A stretch of 64,000 nucleotides of DNA from an uncultured beta proteobacterium. Its GTDB lineage: Bacteria; Pseudomonadota; Gammaproteobacteria; Burkholderiales; SG8-39. Positions within the stretch are counted from its first letter, which is position 1. Each line of letters begins with the position of its first letter. This document shows positions 9,729-25,270 of this stretch, piece by piece. The notes beneath the pieces were generated by a model that did not search any database, was not told the origin of the DNA, and saw only the letters and a program-made list of their open reading frames with translations. The stretch spans positions 137 through 64,136 of the forward strand of contig CAWJNP010000035.1 in NCBI GenBank assembly GCA_963844255.1, read 5' to 3'. A program made the position numbers and the translations under genes.

Positions 9729-9992
9729 TCAGTCGCTGACGTAGGGCCGCGCGAGCTTGAGACGCACGCTCAGGCCGACGCGCAGGGCGACGCGCAGCAG
9801 CGCTTCGAGGCTGAATTCCGCGGCGCGGCCGTTCATCAGCAGGTTCAGGCGGGGCCTTGTCAGGCGCAGCATCGCGGCCAGCTGTGTCTGTGTCATTCCT
9901 TCTTCGCCTGCCTGCTCGACGATGTGATCGAGGCGCCCCCTGATCGCGGCAATCGCCTGTTTGCGCAATGCGAGCATCGGGTCTGCAGCCAT
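9729..9992 (-). CDS. XRE-family helix-turn-helix transcriptional regulator (HigA/antitoxin-like, no toxin partner present)
   Basis: 87 aa with an HTH core MTQTQLAAMLRLTRPRLNLLMNGR, the typical C-terminal EALLRVALRVG, and a GRLDHI N-terminal helix. No adjacent RelE/HigB-like ORF was found on either side. Confidence 0.75.
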   Translation of the reverse strand: MAADPMLALRKQAIAAIRGRLDHIVEQAGEEGMTQTQLAAMLRLTRPRLNLLMNGRAAEFSLEALLRVALRVGLSVRLKLARPYVSD

Positions 9993-10010
9993 CCTTCACC
10001 TCCACATGGG

Positions 10011-10028
10011 TTGTATCGATAACGATAC
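10011..10028. promoter_or_regulatory. 18-bp palindrome TGTATCGATAACGATACA (copy 2) in the divergent promoter region between the XRE regulator and the UGSC-selenoprotein gene
   Basis: It differs by one base from the copy at 46-63. It lies 19 bp upstream of the XRE start codon and about 140 bp upstream of the ATG at 10169. Confidence 0.55.
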
Positions 10029-10168
10029 ACTAACTGACACCAAAGTGGCTACAGAAGCGGACTTTGCCAAATAGATTAGTCAGATTCAGGCGGACTGCGG
10101 GTGGTGGCCACGGTGGGCCATCTGCGTGCTAGCATCGCCTGAAACCGGCACCTTCCAGGAGAGCGCAC

Positions 10169-11899
10169 ATGGTCAGCATCGAGTTCTACGATCCTTCCGG
10201 CGGCATCGAGGTCACGCAACCGCACGCCGCGCGCCTGGACACGCTGGCCGGCAAGCGGATCGGCATCGTCACCAACGAGCAATGGCAGGCCTATCGGATG
10301 CTGCCGATGCTGAAAGAGTGGTTCGAACGCGATTTTCCGGACAGCGAAGTGCTGCCGATTGACGCCTTTCCGCAGGGCAACGGGCTGATCGGCGAGCCGG
10401 AGACTGCGCGGCTGGTGCAGGCCTCGGGTGTCGACGCGGTGATCATCGGCAACGCCGCCTGAGGGTCCTGCGCCACAGCGTGCGGCCGTGCTGCCGCACA
10501 CATCGAAGCACTGGGCATCCCCACCGTGACGCTCACGCGGTCGGATTTCGTCGGTGTCATGAAGAATGCCATCTCGGGCCTCGGCCTTGCGCCGGATGCG
10601 GCCATGGTCGAGTTTTCGATCGAGCTGTTCCTGCCCGGCAGCGATATCGGCGCGGTCGAGGCCCGCAGGCATGAGTTCTATGCCGGGCTGACCGGCTGGA
10701 AATCCGTGCTGCAACCCTCGGCTGACGGCGCCGTGCCGATGCTGAGCGTCGCGGGTGCGAGCTACGAAGACGCGCTGGAGCGTGCCAACCACCTGCTGAT
10801 CACCAGCCTGCAGGGCGACGGCCTGCCGCTGTGGCCGGCCACGCGCGAGCGCGTCGAGCGGATCCTCGCAGGCAGCGCGCAGCCGCGCACGCAGCTGCTC
10901 GGCAAGTTTCCGCCGCGCGGCGGGCTCGCCACGGTCGAAACCTGCGCGGTCGCGCTGGCGATGGCGGGAGGGCGGCCCGAATACCTCCCGGTGCTGATCG
11001 CCGCGGTCGAAGCCTTCCTCGATCCGGACACCAACGCCGAGCAGCTGCAGGCGGCCTCGGGCAGCGCGTTCCCCGTGGTCATCGTCAACGGTCCCATCGC
11101 AAAGCAGATCCGCCTGAATTCGGGATTCGGATGCCTCGGGCCCGACCCGCAGCGTCCGGCCGGTGCGAGCATCGGCCGCGCGCTGCGCCTCATACAGCAG
11201 AACGTCGGCGGCGCGCTGCCCGGCATCGGCGCGATGGCCAACTATGGCGGCATGCGCGCCACCAACATGGTGTTCGCCGAGGACGAAGACACTCTTCCCC
11301 CGGGATGGCCCACGCACGCCGCAGAGCGCCACGGATTTGGGCCGGGCGTGAACTCGGTTTCGCTGCTGTTCGCCAACGGTGCGACCAACATCCGGCGGCG
11401 CGGCGCGATGAAGGAAACGCCGGAAGAAGACGCCACCCAGGGCATGCACCGCATGGCCGATTTCATGCGCGTGCCGAACCTCACCAACCTGCAGGGCTGG
11501 GAGCACGGCACGCCCGGGGCGCTGCTGCTGCCCGGGATCGTTGCGCAGAACATGGCCAGGCTGGGCTGGACCAAACCTGCGATGCGCGAATTCTTCTGGA
11601 CGCATTCGCGGATTCCGGCCGCCGAGCTGCGACGCGCGGGCGGCCCGGCGTGGATCGAGATGGACGCGAACCCGGTCACGCGCGCCAGCGTCGCGCTCGA
11701 CCCCTGGCCGCTCACCGCGGTTCCGGAAAACTTCGTGATCGTCGTTGCGGGGGGCGGGCACCCGACCAACAGCTTCTGGCTGCAGGGCTACAGTCCGCGC
11801 GTGACGGGGCGCGAGATCCATCTGCCGAATGGCTACGATCGCCTGCTCGCGCAGGCCGACCGCGACCTGGGCTGCGGATCGGACGCCTGCCTGATCTGA
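10169..11899 (+). CDS. Putative selenoprotein of about 576 aa: an N-terminal domain carrying the U-G-S-C motif (in-frame TGA at 10460-10462 read as selenocysteine) fused to a roughly 480-aa C-terminal region of unknown function
   Basis: The ATG at 10169 has an AGGAGA Shine-Dalgarno 7 nt upstream. The 97-codon ORF ends at TGA, and the next codons in the SAME frame are GGG-TCC-TGC (G-S-C), continuing without a stop to 11899. The downstream part has no independent Shine-Dalgarno at its candidate starts (GTG 10526, ATG 10558). A hairpin with a GU-containing loop lies just downstream of the TGA. Function of the C-terminal region was not recognised. Confidence 0.6.
10480..10499 (+). other. Candidate bacterial SECIS-like hairpin, 18 nt downstream of the in-frame UGA
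   Basis: The stem GTGCGGC/GCCGCAC (7 bp) with a 6-nt loop cGUgcu lies inside the coding sequence. The position and the apical GU are compatible with a bSECIS, though spaced about 6 nt further than in E. coli fdhF. Confidence 0.4.
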
Positions 11900-11900
11900 G

Positions 11901-13314
11901 GTGACGCGCGCGTCCTCCGCCGGCCGTCCCGTCCTCGGCCTGTGCGTGGTCGGGTTGGGCGCCTCGCTGCCGCCGCTGGACCTCGCGGTCAATGTCGCGT
12001 TTCCGGCGATTACCGCCGCATTCAGTCTGGACACACCCGGAATCCGATGGGTGGTGGCCGCCTATGTCGTGAGTTATGCGAGCCTGATGCTTGCGTTCGG
12101 CAGCCTCGGGGACCTCATCGGCTACCGGCGGATCTTTCGCGCGGGACTCGTGCTCGGTGCCGTGGCCTTCGTGCTCTGCGCCCTTGCGCCCGACTACGCC
12201 TGGCTGCTTGCGGCACGCACGGTGCAGGGCGTCGCCGCCGCGCTGCTCCTGAGTTGCGCGCCCGCGCTGGCGACTTCGCTGTTCGAGGAGAGTCGCCGGA
12301 TCTGGGTGCTCGGCGCGTATTCGAGCATGGCCGCCGCGGCCGGTGTGGTCGCGCCCTTGCTCGGCGGCGCCAGCATCGCGGTGTTCGGCTGGGCGGGGGT
12401 GTTCTGGTTTCGCGTGCCGATTGCCCTGCTAGCCCTGCTCCTGCTGCCCGCATTGCCGGTGCTGCCGCATGCCGGGCATCCGCTGGCGGCGCGCAGGTTC
12501 GATGCCGCCGGCGCGTCCCTGCTGGGTGCGGGCATCGCCATGCTGCTGCTGGCCCCGATGCTGGTGCAGGCGGCCGAAGCGCCATGGCTTGCGTTTTCGG
12601 CCGCCGCCGCGGGTACGTTCCTGTTCGCCGGGTTCCTGCGCCACCAGCGCCGTGCCGCGCAGACCGTGCTGCCGCTTGCGTTGCTACGCGATTCCGGCTT
12701 CGTGTTCCTCAATCTGGTCAGCAGCGCGGTACATTTCTGCGGCTTTACGGTTCCGCTGATCGTGCCTTACTACCTGACCCGCATCTCGGGCTACGGTCCG
12801 CTGGATGCGGGTGGCGTGCTGACGGCGTGGCCGCTCGGCATGCTGGCCGGTTCGGCGCTCGGTGCGCCGGCGGCGCGCGCGTTCGGGCGCGGGCGCACCG
12901 CGCTGATCGGTGGCGGGTTGCTGGTCATCGGCCTGGTCGCCATCGGGTTCTGGCCGGCGGCGCTGGCCGCGCTGCCCATGCTGCCGGGCCTGTTCCTGCA
13001 TGGCGCGGGAATCGGCCTGTTCCAGGTGGCCTATACCGACATGGTGATTGCGATGCTGCCGCAGCATGACGCGCGGCGTGGCCGGCAGCCTGACGATCCT
13101 CACGCGCACCGTCGGCATCATGCTCGGTGCGGCAGGACTGAGCGCGGCGCTGCAACTTTCCGAGGCGGGGTATCTCACCGCGGGACGCGCCGCGCCGGAG
13201 GCGTTTCTTGCCGCGTTCCAGTCGGTGTTCCAGTATGCCGCGGCCGGATTCGCAATCCTGCTGGCACTCAGCTGCCTGCACCGCCGCGTCTGGGTCGATG
13301 CGCGTGGCGATTGA
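11901..13314 (+). CDS. MFS transporter (12-14 TM, DHA-like); apparent frameshift near 13065-13075
   Basis: The GTG start overlaps the selenoprotein stop. The TM-rich MFS signature runs up to MLPQHD in frame 0. The conserved continuation RGVAGSLTILTRTVGIMLGAAGLSAAL is in the +1 frame (ORF 13048..13314). Confidence 0.8.
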
Positions 13315-14179
13315 TCAGCCGCCCTGGCTGCGTATCTCCGTCAGAACCGGCCGCAGGTAGTCGAGGAAGGCTTCCGGATTCTCGCTCATCGGGAAATGGC
13401 CCAGCCCCTTCATGATCGTGACCTTCGCGCCCTTGATGAGGGCCGCAGCGGCCTCGGTGTCCCTCGGTGAGGCCGAGTAGTCGTACTCGCCGGTCAGCAT
13501 GTAGAGCGGACACACCGTGGTGTCGATCGCGCCGATGCGCGCCCGGATGTCGCCTTCCACCTGATAGAAGAAGAGATCCCCGGTGAACACGCCCGGCCCG
13601 CCCTGCATGTAGTGCCAGACCGTCTCCCATCGATGCGCCTCGGGGCTCAACGGCGACATCAGCCCGTAGGCGACCGCGCCGCAGGCCTGCCCGCCATGCA
13701 CCTCGGCATGATTCAGCCAGGCCGATTCGTAGTAGCGCTCGACATAGGCCGCTGACTGCAGCCCGACCAGGGCACGCAGTTCGGAAGCGTGTTCGAGGGC
13801 CAGGTTGAGCACGATGCGACCGCCGATCGAGCAGCCCATCACGACCGGGCGATCCTTGCCGTGCAGGCCGAGCGCCTTCGCGACCGCCATGATCTGGCGC
13901 GTATAGCTTTCGGTGGTGAGCCGGTAGTCGTCCTTTTCCCAGCCCTCGGGCGGCGAGGACTTGCCGTGCCAGGGCATGTCGAATGCGATGACGCGATAGT
14001 GACGGGTGATCTCCGGGTCGTTCAGCACCGCGCGGAACTGGCGGCTGTCGGAGCCCGCAGTGTGCAGGCAGAGCGAGCGGGATGCCTTGTCCGGCTTCCT
14101 CGAAATACAGGCGATGCGGCTTGCCATCGAGTTCCATGTGCACGTAGCGGCCGGTGACGTTCTCCAGACGGGCAGTCAT
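13315..14179 (-). CDS. Alpha/beta-fold hydrolase (GCSIGG nucleophile elbow); apparent frameshift near 14085
   Basis: The N-terminus MTARLENVTGRYVHMELDGKPHRLYFEEAGQGIP is in one frame (start 14179). The remainder LCLHTAGSDSRQF...GCSIGG...H is in the frame of ORF 13315..14127. The stop abuts the MFS stop (TGATCA, no intergenic space). Confidence 0.8.
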
Positions 14180-21230: not shown

Positions 21231-22144
21231 AGGCTGGCGAAATGCCGGGCCATGCGCGTGCGCATGGCCGCATCCGGCAGTGGGCCGCTGCCGGCGGCAA
21301 GGTTGTCCTGCATGTGCGCGGGCTTGCCGGTGCCGGGGATTGCACAGGTGACGGACGGGTGCGAGATGATCCACTTGAGGAAGTACTGGGCCCAGCTGGT
21401 CGCGCCGAACTCCGCGGCCCAGGCTGGCAGGGGCTTGCCGCGTGAGCGGCGGAACATCTCTCCTTCCGCAAACGGGCGGTTGACCAGGACGGCGACGCCC
21501 TTTTCGCGCGCCAGCGGCAGCAGGCGTGCCTCGGAGTCCGGTTCGGCCAGCGAATAGTTGATCTGGAGGAAATCGTATTTTCCGGCTTTCAGCCAGCGCT
21601 CGACCTCGTCGTAGGCCGAGCGGGTGTAGTGGGTGATGCCGATGTAGCGCACCCGCCCCGCGGACTTCCAGTCCTCAAGCGTTCTGGTATGCACGGCCGC
21701 ATCGACGAGGTTGTGGATCTGCATCAGGTCCATGCGCGCGACCCGCAACTTCTTGAAGGAGGCTTCCATCTGAGCGATGCCTTCTTCGCGGCCCCGCGTC
21801 CATACCTTGGTTGCGACAAACAGCCGGTTCGTGATCCCGAGGTCCGCTGCGATATCGCCTGCGACGGTCTCGCTCGAGCCATACATCGGCGAGCTGTCGA
21901 TGACGCGTCCGCCGGCTGCCGCAAACAATGCTAGAACTTCCTTCAGCGCACCGAGGGTTGTCGCGTCTCCGCCTGCATCGAACGTCTGCCATGTCCCGAC
22001 GCCGATTGCGGGCAGGGTTTCACCGCTGGAAGGAATGACGCGCGCGACGAGTCCCTCGGCAGCCTGTACCGGAACCGGACTCACCGCGGCAAGCCCGGCA
22101 AGGCCCGCAAGCCCGCGAAGTGCACTACGACGTGCCGGATCCAT
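21227..22144 (-). CDS. Aldo/keto reductase with twin-arginine (Tat) signal peptide
   Basis: N-terminal RRSALRGLAGLAGLAAV Tat motif with the AKR (alpha/beta)8 signature regions (e.g. GITHYTRSAYDE). Confidence 0.8.
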   Translation of the reverse strand: MDPARRSALRGLAGLAGLAAVSPVPVQAAEGLVARVIPSSGETLPAIGVGTWQTFDAGGDATTLGALKEVLALFAAAGGRVIDSSPMYGSSETVAGDIAADLGITNRLFVATKVWTRGREEGIAQMEASFKKLRVARMDLMQIHNLVDAAVHTRTLEDWKSAGRVRYIGITHYTRSAYDEVERWLKAGKYDFLQINYSLAEPDSEARLLPLAREKGVAVLVNRPFAEGEMFRRSRGKPLPAWAAEFGATSWAQYFLKWIISHPSVTCAIPGTGKPAHMQDNLAAGSGPLPDAAMRTRMARHFASL

Positions 22145-22243
22145 GCGTGCATTCTCGAATCAGGAAGGCTCAAACCGCGATGGTATCTCAGCCCGCGGAC
22201 CGCTACGGGAAAGATTCAGGCATCTCGATCGGTAGAGGGGGAC

Positions 22244-25200
22244 ATGGAGCGCGCATCGGCTAAAATGCGCAGCTCGATGAAAGCCGAGTTGCAAGCAGAA
22301 TTCCAAACCGATCAGGCTGCGGCACTGGCGGCGGCGCTATCCGCAGCGATCGCGGGAGAGGTTCGCTTCGATGCGGGCAGCCGCGCGGTGTATTCGGCGG
22401 ACGCCTCCAACTATCGCCAGATCCCGATCGGGGTCGTGCTGCCAAAGACCTTCGATGACGTGGTCGCCGCAGTGCGCATCTGTCGCGCGCATGGCGCGCC
22501 GCTGTTGCCGCGCGGCGGGGGCACCTCGCAGTGCGGGCAGTGCGTGAACGTCGCCGTGGTGCTCGATTTTTCGAAGTACCTCGGCCACGTCGTGTCGGTG
22601 GATCCCGCAGCCCGCACCGCGCTCGTCCAGCCCGGTGCCGTGTGCGACGCCCTGAAGGCCGCCGCCGAAGCGCACGGGCTCACGTTCGGCCCCGATCCCG
22701 CGACCCACAGCCGGTGCACCCTCGGCGGGATGATCGGCAACAACTCCTGCGGCGCGCACTCGGTGATGGCGGGCAAGACGGTGGAGAACATCGAGTCGCT
22801 CGAGGTGCTGACCTACGACGGTGCGCGCTTCTGGGCCGGACCGACCTCGGAGGGCGAACTCGAGGCGATCATCGCGCGCGGCGGAAGGCAGGGAGAGATC
22901 TACGCGCAGCTGAAGGCGCTGCGCGACAAGTATGCCGACCTGATTCGCGCGCGCTTTCCGCAGATCAAGCGCCGCGTGTCGGGCTACAACCTCGACCAGC
23001 TTCTGCCGGAGAACGGGTTCAACGTTGCGCGCGCACTGGTCGGCAGCGAGGGCACCTGCGCGATTACGCTGCAGGCAGTCACCCGGCTGGTGAAGAACCC
23101 TGCAGCGCGCGTGGTCCTGATCCTGGGCTTTCCCGACATTTATGCCGCGGGCGACGTGGTGCCGGAGGTGCTGCGTGCGGCGCCGATCGCCTGCGAGGGA
23201 CTCGACGAAAAGATCATCGGTGGCCTGCGCGAGCGTCGCCTGAAACTCGAAGACATCGACCTGTTGCCCGCAGGATCTGCCTGGCTGATGGTCGAGTTCG
23301 GCGCCGCGACCCGGCAGGCCGCCGTGGCACAGGCGCGCGGTCTCATGGATGCGGTCGCGGGCAGGAACCCGCGACCCAGTGCATGGCTGATCGAGGACAA
23401 GCCGACGATCGAGCGCATGTGGACGATCCGCGAGACAGGGGCCTCGGCGACGGCACTGGCGCGCGGCGCGGATGAAGCCACGCGCGGTCCGGACCCGGTG
23501 GTGGGTTGGGAAGATGCTGCGGTCGATCCGCTGCGCCTGGGTGACTACCTGCGCGAATTCCAGGCGCTGATCGATGCCTGCGGGTATCGCACCTCGCTCT
23601 ACGGGCATTTCGGAGACGGCTGCATTCACGCGCGCATCACGTTCGACCTGCGCAGCCCCGAAGGCATCGCGCAATGGCGCGGTTTCCTGAAGCAGGCGGC
23701 CGACCTCGTGGTCAAGTACGGCGGATCGCTGTCAGGCGAGCACGGCGACGGACAGGCGAAGGCCGAATTCCTGCCGGCGATGTATGGCGAGGAACTGATG
23801 GGCGCCTTCCGGGAGTTCAAGGCGATCTGGGATCCGGAGAACCGCATGAACCCGGGCAAGCTGATCAACGCGAATGGTCCGGTGAACGCGGCCGACGCGA
23901 ATCTGCGCCTCGGGCCGGCGTACAAACCGGTCACGTTCGCCACGCGCTTTGCCTTCAGGAGCGATGTGGGCGACGGATTCACGCGGGCGACGGAGCATTG
24001 CATCGGGATGGGAAAGTGCCGCGCGACGTCCGGGGGCACGATGTGCCCGAGCTACCGGGTGACCGGCGAGGAGCGTTACTCGACGCGCGGCCGCGCGCGG
24101 CTGCTGTTCGAAATGCTGCAGGGCGAGGTCATCAAGGACGGCTGGCAGAGCGAAGAAGTGAAGGAGGCGCTCGACTGGTGCCTCGCATGCAAGGGATGCA
24201 AGAGCGACTGTCCCACGCACACCGACATGGCCACCTACAAGGCGGAGTTTCTATCCCACTACCATGAGAAGAAGGCCCGGCCCCACCAGGCCTGGTCGAT
24301 GGGCCGTATCGGCGACTGGGCGCCGCTGGCCGCGAAGTTTCCGCGCATCGCCAATTTCTTCTCCCAGACTGCAGCATTCGCGCCGCTGGCCAAGCGCGTG
24401 TCCGGCGTTGCGCAGGAACGGTCACTTCCCGCATTCGCGAGGCAAAGTTTTCGTGAGCAGTTCAACGTGCTTCACGCCAGCCGTCGGGATCCGGATCAGC
24501 CGCGCGCAGTGCGGCGTGGAGAGCCTGTGATTCTGTGGGCGGACACCTTCAGCAATTATTTCCGTCCGGAAACGGCGCTCGCCGCGGTCGAGGTACTGGA
24601 AGCGGCCGGCTGCCGGGTCAGTATCCCGCCGGAACGCCTGTGCTGCGGGCGTCCCTATTACGATTTCGGTTTTCTGGACGCGGCAAAGGACGCTCTCGCA
24701 CGGATCCTCGAGTCGCTCGGAGCCTCGATCTATTCAGGCACGCCGGTGGTCGGGTTGGAGCCCAGTTGCGTTGCGGTTTTCCGCGATGAGCTGCGCAATC
24801 TGTTCCCGGATGACGAAAGGGCGCAGCGCCTGGCCAGCCAGACGTTTACGCTGGCGGAGTATCTGGAGCGCAGGGAATGGCGTCCTCCGCAGAGGCGCGA
24901 TCTGATCGGCTCGCGTGCGCTGGTGCATGGCCATTGTCATCAGAAGGCAGTGCTCGGCATGCAGTCCGAACTCAGGCTGCTCGAGGCCGCAGGTTTCAGC
25001 GTCGACGTGCCGGATTCAGGCTGCTGCGGCATGGCCGGCTCGTTCGGATTCAATCCGGCTCACTATGCGGCCTCGCAACAGATCGGCGAACGCATCCTGC
25101 TACCGAAGGTGCGTGAGGCGACGGACGAAACCCTGATCGTTGCGAACGGGTTTTCCTGCCGCGAGCAGATCGAACAGGCGACCGGTCGCAAGACGCTTCA

Positions 25201-25270
25201 CATTGCCGAGGTTCTCGCCGGCGTGCTGCGAAATGCGTCTGCTTCCGGCAGCGACGGCCCGCAGGGTTGA
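22244..25270 (+). CDS. ydiJ: FAD-linked oxidase fused to an Fe-S (CCG/GlpC-like) domain, YdiJ-like D-2-hydroxyacid dehydrogenase (1008 aa)
   Basis: N-terminal PCMH FAD-binding domain (GGGTSQCGQ), a central 4Fe-4S CxxCxxC region, and a C-terminal cysteine-rich CCG domain. The size and architecture match E. coli YdiJ. Confidence 0.85.
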   Translation: MERASAKMRSSMKAELQAEFQTDQAAALAAALSAAIAGEVRFDAGSRAVYSADASNYRQIPIGVVLPKTFDDVVAAVRICRAHGAPLLPRGGGTSQCGQCVNVAVVLDFSKYLGHVVSVDPAARTALVQPGAVCDALKAAAEAHGLTFGPDPATHSRCTLGGMIGNNSCGAHSVMAGKTVENIESLEVLTYDGARFWAGPTSEGELEAIIARGGRQGEIYAQLKALRDKYADLIRARFPQIKRRVSGYNLDQLLPENGFNVARALVGSEGTCAITLQAVTRLVKNPAARVVLILGFPDIYAAGDVVPEVLRAAPIACEGLDEKIIGGLRERRLKLEDIDLLPAGSAWLMVEFGAATRQAAVAQARGLMDAVAGRNPRPSAWLIEDKPTIERMWTIRETGASATALARGADEATRGPDPVVGWEDAAVDPLRLGDYLREFQALIDACGYRTSLYGHFGDGCIHARITFDLRSPEGIAQWRGFLKQAADLVVKYGGSLSGEHGDGQAKAEFLPAMYGEELMGAFREFKAIWDPENRMNPGKLINANGPVNAADANLRLGPAYKPVTFATRFAFRSDVGDGFTRATEHCIGMGKCRATSGGTMCPSYRVTGEERYSTRGRARLLFEMLQGEVIKDGWQSEEVKEALDWCLACKGCKSDCPTHTDMATYKAEFLSHYHEKKARPHQAWSMGRIGDWAPLAAKFPRIANFFSQTAAFAPLAKRVSGVAQERSLPAFARQSFREQFNVLHASRRDPDQPRAVRRGEPVILWADTFSNYFRPETALAAVEVLEAAGCRVSIPPERLCCGRPYYDFGFLDAAKDALARILESLGASIYSGTPVVGLEPSCVAVFRDELRNLFPDDERAQRLASQTFTLAEYLERREWRPPQRRDLIGSRALVHGHCHQKAVLGMQSELRLLEAAGFSVDVPDSGCCGMAGSFGFNPAHYAASQQIGERILLPKVREATDETLIVANGFSCREQIEQATGRKTLHIAEVLAGVLRNASASGSDGPQG

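Follow-up and report, generated by a model that had tools for sequence, protein, structure and literature searches.

A UGSC-family gene that is very probably read through an in-frame UGA as a two-domain selenoprotein in an uncultured betaproteobacterium

We analyzed a 64,000-nucleotide stretch of DNA from an uncultured beta proteobacterium (contig CAWJNP010000035.1 of assembly GCA_963844255.1), referred to here as the window, in which an earlier note made from the sequence alone had proposed that a TGA within a U-G-S-C motif joins two open reading frames (ORFs) into one large selenoprotein. With high confidence, positions 10169-11899 of the forward strand constitute one gene for a 576-residue selenoprotein, in which a UGA decoded as selenocysteine (Sec) lies within a UGSC domain that is fused to a second domain, hereafter the partner domain. 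Direct reading of the sequence agreed with the earlier note: the ATG at 10169, which is preceded at 6 nt by a Shine-Dalgarno-like AGGAGA (10157-10162, forward strand), opens 97 sense codons that end at the TGA at 10460-10462; the codons that follow are GGG TCC TGC, and the same frame stays open for another 478 codons up to a second TGA at 11897-11899. The gene is thus complete, with 576 codons plus a stop, and is a single open frame except for the TGA at codon 98; the read-through product reads ...IIGNAA-U-GSCATACGRAAAHIEALGIPTVTLTR..., with U at position 98 opening the motif U-G-S-C-A-T-A-C. No purine-rich Shine-Dalgarno sequence precedes either of the internal start candidates, GTG 10526 and ATG 10559, which agrees with the note.

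The Pfam UGSC model (PF24696) matched residues 7-146 of the product (10187-10606, forward strand; predicted flavodoxin/Rossmann-like alpha/beta fold) with 69 bits against a gathering threshold of 25, so that one recognized domain runs through the TGA. A homologue search covering 5.8 billion proteins returned two classes of relatives. The full-length relatives listed (79 proteins of 563-621 aa, most of them 573-586 aa, at 58-65% identity) align end to end with the read-through product and are contiguous over the TGA position, which bears out the proposed joining of the two ORFs into one protein. The earlier note had suggested looking for Cys-containing homologues aligned over the UGA, and indeed all 79 of these listed relatives have Cys in the Sec column, within the motif C-G-[SAG]-C. 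The second class comprised 41 closer relatives (72-100% identity) that had been called as proteins of 431-466 aa only, with assorted starts just past the TGA position, because their DNA has TGA at the same codon. In the DNA that we fetched, an in-frame TGA at this codon was present in 150 loci (144 unique genes) with protein identities of 69-100%, from metagenome-assembled genomes (MAGs) of Betaproteobacteria/Burkholderiales and of Rokubacteria/Methylomirabilota, whereas TGC or TGT was found at the Sec codon in only 7 retrieved loci. The TGA-bearing loci have a 97-residue UGSC ORF upstream and an in-frame protein that is conserved across the junction, and gene callers had split every one of the retrieved Sec-form homologues into two ORFs. 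Furthermore, the 21 codons that follow the TGA up to the earliest possible restart (GSCATACGRAAA..IPTVTLTR) are conserved as protein, while synonymous sites at codons +1, +5, +6, +10 and +12 vary. Otherwise, TGA serves as a normal stop codon in the source genome, as seen from the second TGA of the gene itself, which coincides with the end of its homologues, and the occurrence of the same TGA at the same codon in 150 independent loci means that the arrangement is not due to chance. On these comparisons, the TGA is very probably a genuine Sec codon.

A Cys-form query likewise led mainly to TGA: of the 80 best metagenome loci that it retrieved (L088-L167), 73 had TGA rather than a Cys codon, and within the fused UGSC subfamily Sec forms appear to be far commoner than Cys forms in the environments sampled. 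Near-identical genes of betaproteobacterial type were present in MAGs labeled Bordetella parapertussis, Streptomyces sp., Chitinophaga pinensis, Nitrosotalea sp. and Acidoferrum sp. (loci with such labels include L008, L013, L016, L035 and L070); these bins look mislabeled or contaminated.

Downstream of the TGA, the earlier note had pointed out a hairpin, GTGCGGC/GCCGCAC, 18 nt past the UGA. Its arms and loop were read at 10480-10499 of the forward strand (GTGCGGC at 10480-10486, loop CGTGCT at 10487-10492 and GCCGCAC at 10493-10499); the 7-bp stem opens at the 18th nucleotide after the TGA, and its conserved core, GCGGC (10482-10486) paired with GCCGC (10493-10497), lies 20 nt downstream of the TGA. 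The constraints published for the bacterial selenocysteine insertion sequence (bSECIS) are a loop of 3-9 nt, a stem of 4-16 bp, a G among the first two loop nucleotides, a UGA-to-loop distance of 16-37 nt and a minimum free energy of at most -7.5 kcal/mol (PMC13188914). With 7 bp, the loop CGUGCU, a UGA-to-loop distance of 24 nt and an energy of -12.2 kcal/mol, the hairpin falls within every one of these bounds, as do 121 of the 129 unique Sec forms but none of the 7 Cys forms. Similarly, the 5-bp core GCGGC/GCCGC was intact in 128/129 unique Sec forms and absent in 7/7 Cys forms, the only core variation being a G-C pair that became G.U in 13 sequences, where Ala is replaced by Val and the pair is kept. 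The loop G was present in all 129 Sec forms.

Because the stem codons encode conserved residues, we tested for selection at the RNA level using 145 conserved four-fold-degenerate codons across the 144 Sec-form genes. The GGC codon for Gly at +8 was the sole codon with zero synonymous variation (129/129); it thus ranks first of the 145 codons, whose third-base entropy has a median of 1.19 bits. In the Sec forms, codon +7 was TGC in 128/128 and codon +11 was GCC in 115/116, while the adjoining Ala, Thr and Gly codons varied freely; the stem codons for Gly and Ala, by contrast, varied in the Cys forms, in which +7 was mostly Leu and the hairpin was absent. The terminal TGA of the gene (11897-11899) likewise has no such hairpin. 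These comparisons support a SECIS-type hairpin that is under RNA-level selection only where the TGA is present. The Cys that the Sec forms carry at +7 (TGC, 10481-10483), which extends the motif to UGSCATAC, is encoded by the codon that gives the first two stem pairs, and since only NGC codons can supply these pairs, we infer that this extra Cys is at least partly dictated by the RNA structure.

Several points weigh against Sec decoding. The folding energy of the hairpin was not exceptional when compared with shuffles of this G+C-rich sequence (z = +1.0), and since the energy alone fails to single out the hairpin, we relied on the comparative evidence; the stem core is invariant, so it offers no two-sided covariation, and the Cys-form DNA controls number only seven. 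An Rfam search of positions 9900-12000 gave no relevant match; this SECIS type has no curated model. ARAGORN detected no tRNA in the 64-kb window, nor a tRNA-Sec in the 1.96 Mb that the related loci span, and a Pfam scan of approximately 45 ORFs in the window revealed no selA, selB or selD. In addition, no family member has experimental data (PMC13188914).

These points have to be set against what the rival readings of the TGA would require. If the TGA were a genuine stop, two products would be made, namely a truncated UGSC fragment of 97 residues and a separately translated protein of approximately 446-457 residues. This is how gene callers split the locus in all Sec-form contigs, and it would agree with the lack of Sec machinery within the window. 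However, the Pfam UGSC domain spans the putative stop, the 63-96 nt that separate the TGA from the called starts encode, in frame, a conserved stretch of protein, and the called starts themselves differ among homologues (ATG, GTG or TTG at varied positions, without a Shine-Dalgarno sequence). The Cys homologues are contiguous across this position, and a SECIS-type hairpin that is under RNA-level selection only in the TGA forms would be unexpected at a plain stop; we therefore regard termination as very improbable.

An equally improbable alternative is that the UGA is recoded as something other than Sec, namely through Trp, Gly or Cys read-through or through SelB-independent suppression. Cys can go in at Sec codons under selenium limitation. 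This general observation, and the lack of direct selenium evidence, would leave room for such recoding, but the homologues invariably align the Cys of a CxxC-type motif with the UGA, the downstream hairpin fits a SelB-type SECIS model and TGA terminates the same gene. Moreover, the protein belongs to an established Sec/Cys family (PMC2398784, PMC13188914). That the TGA arose from an error in sequencing or assembly, or that the gene is a pseudogene, is hardly credible and appears effectively refuted by the comparative data: the adjoining transporter gene does have an apparent 1-nt frameshift near 13070, which suggests sequence that is locally imperfect or decaying, but 150 loci that were assembled independently, with protein identities of 69-100%, share the identical TGA, and the selenoprotein gene has no other in-frame disruption. 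Reading the TGA as Sec within the U-G-S-C of the UGSC family, as the earlier note did, is where domain continuity, the Cys/TGA pairing, the hairpin and the selection on its codons agree.

UGSC-containing selenoproteins of unknown function were described in 2007-2008 (PMC1976440, PMC2398784) and are still uncharacterized (PMC9312934; 2026 review PMC13188914). A 'UGSC/Unknown_1' fusion was reported from the GOS metagenome, with an extra domain that also occurs alone (PMC2398784, Fig. S1A); it and the window protein very probably have the same architecture. The window protein shares with the UGSC family (Zhang & Gladyshev; PF24696, NF041046) a U/C-G-S-C motif in the corresponding place of the domain, a significant match to the Pfam model, a preponderance of Sec over Cys forms, a SECIS hairpin directly downstream and the uncharacterized function; across the homologues the motif is U/C-G-[SATG]-C. 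It differs from the family in its length of approximately 576 aa, compared with approximately 150-190 aa, and in the extra Cys at +7. Its score against NCBIfam NF041046 was 45.5 bits, below the equivalog cut-off of 125, which places it in a related subfamily rather than among the equivalogs; the same model matched 21/21 fused homologues (43 bits for the first member, best E 5e-13). The gene thus very probably joins a known selenoprotein family, to which the present analysis adds the SECIS evidence and the recognition of a module of UGSC and partner. A Trx-like fold had been proposed for UGSC in PMC2398784, but this was rejected here because the AlphaFold (AF2) model of the UGSC domain instead resembles flavodoxin/Rossmann-like domains.

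The partner domain occupies residues 186-576 (10724-11896, forward strand). In agreement with the earlier note, which recognized no family in the C-terminal region, these approximately 390 residues had no match in Pfam, NCBIfam or PDB sequences. AlphaFold models were nevertheless confident, with a predicted local distance difference test score (pLDDT) of 82 and a predicted template modeling score (pTM) of 0.84 for a full-length Cys homologue (P0004), and with a pLDDT of 80.5 and a pTM of 0.85 for the C-terminal region of the window protein alone, and the predicted domain had no PDB fold neighbor and no described family. An exhaustive search with a profile of the domain retrieved 3,972 representative clusters at E <= 1e-3, 637 of them at E <= 1e-30, which include UGSC-partner fusions in divergent lineages (P0204, P0214, P0246, P0263), proteins of approximately 350 aa with the partner domain alone (P0227, P0240) and a partner form with a C-terminal ferredoxin:thioredoxin-reductase catalytic domain (P0208). 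At the DNA level, P0208 (locus L172, 4452-6485) proved to be a 677-residue Sec-containing triple fusion of UGSC, partner and FeThRed_B domains with an in-frame TGA (GIAS-U-GSCTAW).

The two domains also occur as separate neighboring genes. A Cys-form UGSC gene lies directly upstream of a standalone partner gene, with overlapping stop and start, in four loci (L168-171), and a Sec-form UGSC gene (GVGD-U-GGCTSW) precedes a standalone partner gene in a fifth (L173). The hairpin core of the window gene, GCGGC/GCCGC, which codes for C-G-R-A-A, differs from that of the Sec forms in L172 and L173, where it is CGUGGA/UCCACG and codes for W-S-V-H. For standalone UGSC genes found in another search, a partner gene followed immediately downstream in L174/175 and L176/177 (hidden Markov model (HMM) E 1e-12 to 1e-36); one further UGSC contig has a family-less 344-aa gene directly upstream, and in L178 the UGSC gene is followed by a partial ORF of 192 aa that the partner HMM did not recognize. 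Since UGSC adjoins the partner, separate or fused, across these loci, the window gene represents a conserved module of UGSC and partner in its fused form with Sec, and the association looks obligate from the loci compared. Other arrangements of the partner domain were also seen, including a tandem duplicate in P0175 (717 aa) and, at 4559-6617 of L174, a copy that is split or frameshifted, with a second paralogue after it. In the split operons L168 (6063-6311) and L176 (5624-5851), a small protein of 75-82 aa is encoded right after the partner gene; the two are homologous (blastp E = 2e-9), have in common an AACA[ED]C CxxC motif, one has a weak NifU Pfam match, and they may represent a third component of the module. 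The L172 triple fusion neighbors genes for an FAD_binding_2 flavoprotein, a 2Fe-2S protein, UbiD, OYE and CoA-transferases.

For the synthesis of the protein, we propose that the UGA at 10460-10462 would be read as Sec, with the hairpin acting as a bacterial SECIS that recruits SelB with Sec-tRNA(Sec), while the terminal TGA at 11897-11899, which has no hairpin, would end translation. In the product, U98-G-S-C101 of the N-terminal UGSC domain would form a redox centre and the partner domain would bind a small organic substrate; Sec98 could act as the nucleophile or reductant and be resolved by Cys101 to give a selenenylsulfide, which a thiol relay would reduce again. In the clade of the window protein this relay could be thioredoxin or the C-terminal tail with its C569-x4-C574 pair, and in relatives the small CxxC protein or the fused ferredoxin:thioredoxin-reductase domain. 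Such a selenol/thiol relay serving a reaction on the partner domain is plausible, although we put it forward tentatively and as somewhat short of probable; the SelB dependence, the redox cycle and the nature of the substrate are all inferred. The clade-specific tail, C569-G-S-D-A-C574 (11873-11890, forward strand), is predicted to be flexible (pLDDT < 50 for residues 570-576); C574 is invariant and C569 at least 90% conserved in the clade, and the tail is absent from divergent relatives. This flexible Cys-x4-Cys tail of the window's clade and the FeThRed_B domain fused in L172 recall thioredoxin-reductase-type tails and ferredoxin:thioredoxin reductase, and by analogy suggest electron delivery to the U/CxxC centre. 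This likeness is a functional analogy only, and the window protein has no flavin or NAD(P)H domain.

In selenoprotein B of the glycine, betaine, sarcosine and D-proline reductases (GrdB, GrdF, GrdH, PrdB), too, a UxxC motif of Sec and Cys opens a helix within an alpha/beta domain. The resemblance to a GrdB-type centre that the earlier note had drawn stood in part: a weak similarity recurs, with residues 77-123 matching the Sec segment of the PrdB/GrdB profiles, but it is sub-threshold (best E = 0.002) and far from the family cut-offs (16.2 bits compared with 300 for PrdB, and 12.1 compared with 602 for GrdB). The more specific likeness to UxxCxxC did not hold, as the motif in the window is UxxCxxxC. 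No gene for a pyruvoyl proprotein (PrdA/GrdE) or for GrdA was found nearby, among the window genes and the listed neighbors of related loci, and the hosts of the window gene are aerobic-type Burkholderiales rather than Stickland fermenters. The similarity to PrdB/GrdB thus hints at related chemistry and is a lead only. By analogy with PrdA/GrdE, pyruvoyl-type self-processing at the invariant FGCLGPD loop was also considered and was rejected, since the Cys of this loop is not conserved in divergent relatives.

Some findings count against the proposed redox function. No Cys or His is universally conserved in the partner domain, whose universal residues are polar or charged (DGLPxxPPT, AGxxPEY, NGP, NATIGRAxRL and AEDE), and the fused form has no fixed neighbor gene in the 145 loci surveyed. 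Another is P0216 (561 aa), a UGSC-like and partner fusion whose motif, GNAGGGAAAHH, lacks Cys and Sec; it may be a non-redox variant, and not all members therefore need be redox-active. An alternative, which we judge unlikely although it is the most serious of those considered, is that UGSC and partner form a factor for Fe-S or metal handling or maturation, or a non-redox enzyme such as an isomerase or hydratase, in which UGSC is regulatory or structural. The NifU-like small proteins behind the partner gene in the split operons, the fusion of one relative to the 4Fe-4S FeThRed_B domain, the aconitase-type and PrpD-type dehydratases among the neighbors, the P0216 motif and the acidic, basic and polar rather than redox-active character of the universal partner residues would all be consistent with it. 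Against this, Sec serves redox catalysis almost exclusively, almost all family members have the U/CxxC motif, FeThRed_B and CxxC proteins serve as modules for disulfide reduction, and the weak match to the Sec-containing segment of the PrdB/GrdB reductases is recurrent.

The genes that adjoin the selenoprotein gene in the window give little constancy. On its upstream side lies a divergent regulator gene of the HTH_37/XRE type (9729-9992, reverse strand; Pfam HTH_37 at 5e-10), which is a local neighbor. Starting 2 nt past the selenoprotein stop, an MFS transporter gene (11901-13296, forward strand; Pfam MFS_1) is frameshifted near 13070-13072: in a tblastn search with the intact 466-aa homologue from L008, the frame that matched residues 1-389 gave way to the next frame for residues 390-464, over a whole span of 11901-13415. 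The frameshift reflects either a pseudogene or an assembly error. Among the 145 loci of the fused gene whose neighborhoods we surveyed, TctC/Bug binding proteins were the commonest neighbors (41 loci), followed by acyl-CoA dehydrogenases (16), TauD-like dioxygenases (14), amidohydrolases (13 and 10), short-chain dehydrogenases/reductases (12) and CoA-transferases (11), a composition that suggests a flavor of small-organic-acid catabolism. The MFS type of the window adjoined the gene in 6 of these loci and no helix-turn-helix (HTH) cluster was among the recurrent neighbors, and since the neighbors vary, the MFS/XRE operon was rejected as a feature of the family. The MFS transporter gene and the divergent XRE regulator described in the earlier note do adjoin the gene at this locus but are not conserved, and the redox/transport module that it proposed is a local arrangement with a frameshifted transporter. 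Elsewhere in the window, at 21935-25270 of the forward strand, a 1,111-aa ORF encodes an unrelated GlcD/GlpC-like fusion of FAD-linked oxidase, 4Fe-4S dicluster and cysteine-rich CCG domains.

The finding has three consequences for the family. UGSC selenoproteins are routinely mis-annotated as two ORFs, which amounts to a widespread annotation error. Coding and RNA structure appear to be coupled in the Sec forms, where Cys at +7 and the fixed codons for Gly and Ala would be a consequence of the hairpin stem. Finally, UGSC is regularly paired with one partner domain of unclassified fold, which gives a defined two-domain unit with a clear candidate for the active-site residue and with candidate electron donors. 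It is possible, although we regard this as speculative, that UGSC and partner represent a two-component class of selenol/thiol-dependent enzymes that has not been recognized before and whose catalytic fold is new. Such a class would be common among the Burkholderiales of soil and freshwater and among Rokubacteria; it might be an aerobic counterpart of the PrdB/GrdB type of selenoenzymes for reductive bond cleavage, act on an organic-acid-like or amino-acid-like substrate and draw on interchangeable electron-entry modules, namely the Cys-x4-Cys tail, the small CxxC protein or the FTR-like (ferredoxin:thioredoxin-reductase-like) domain.

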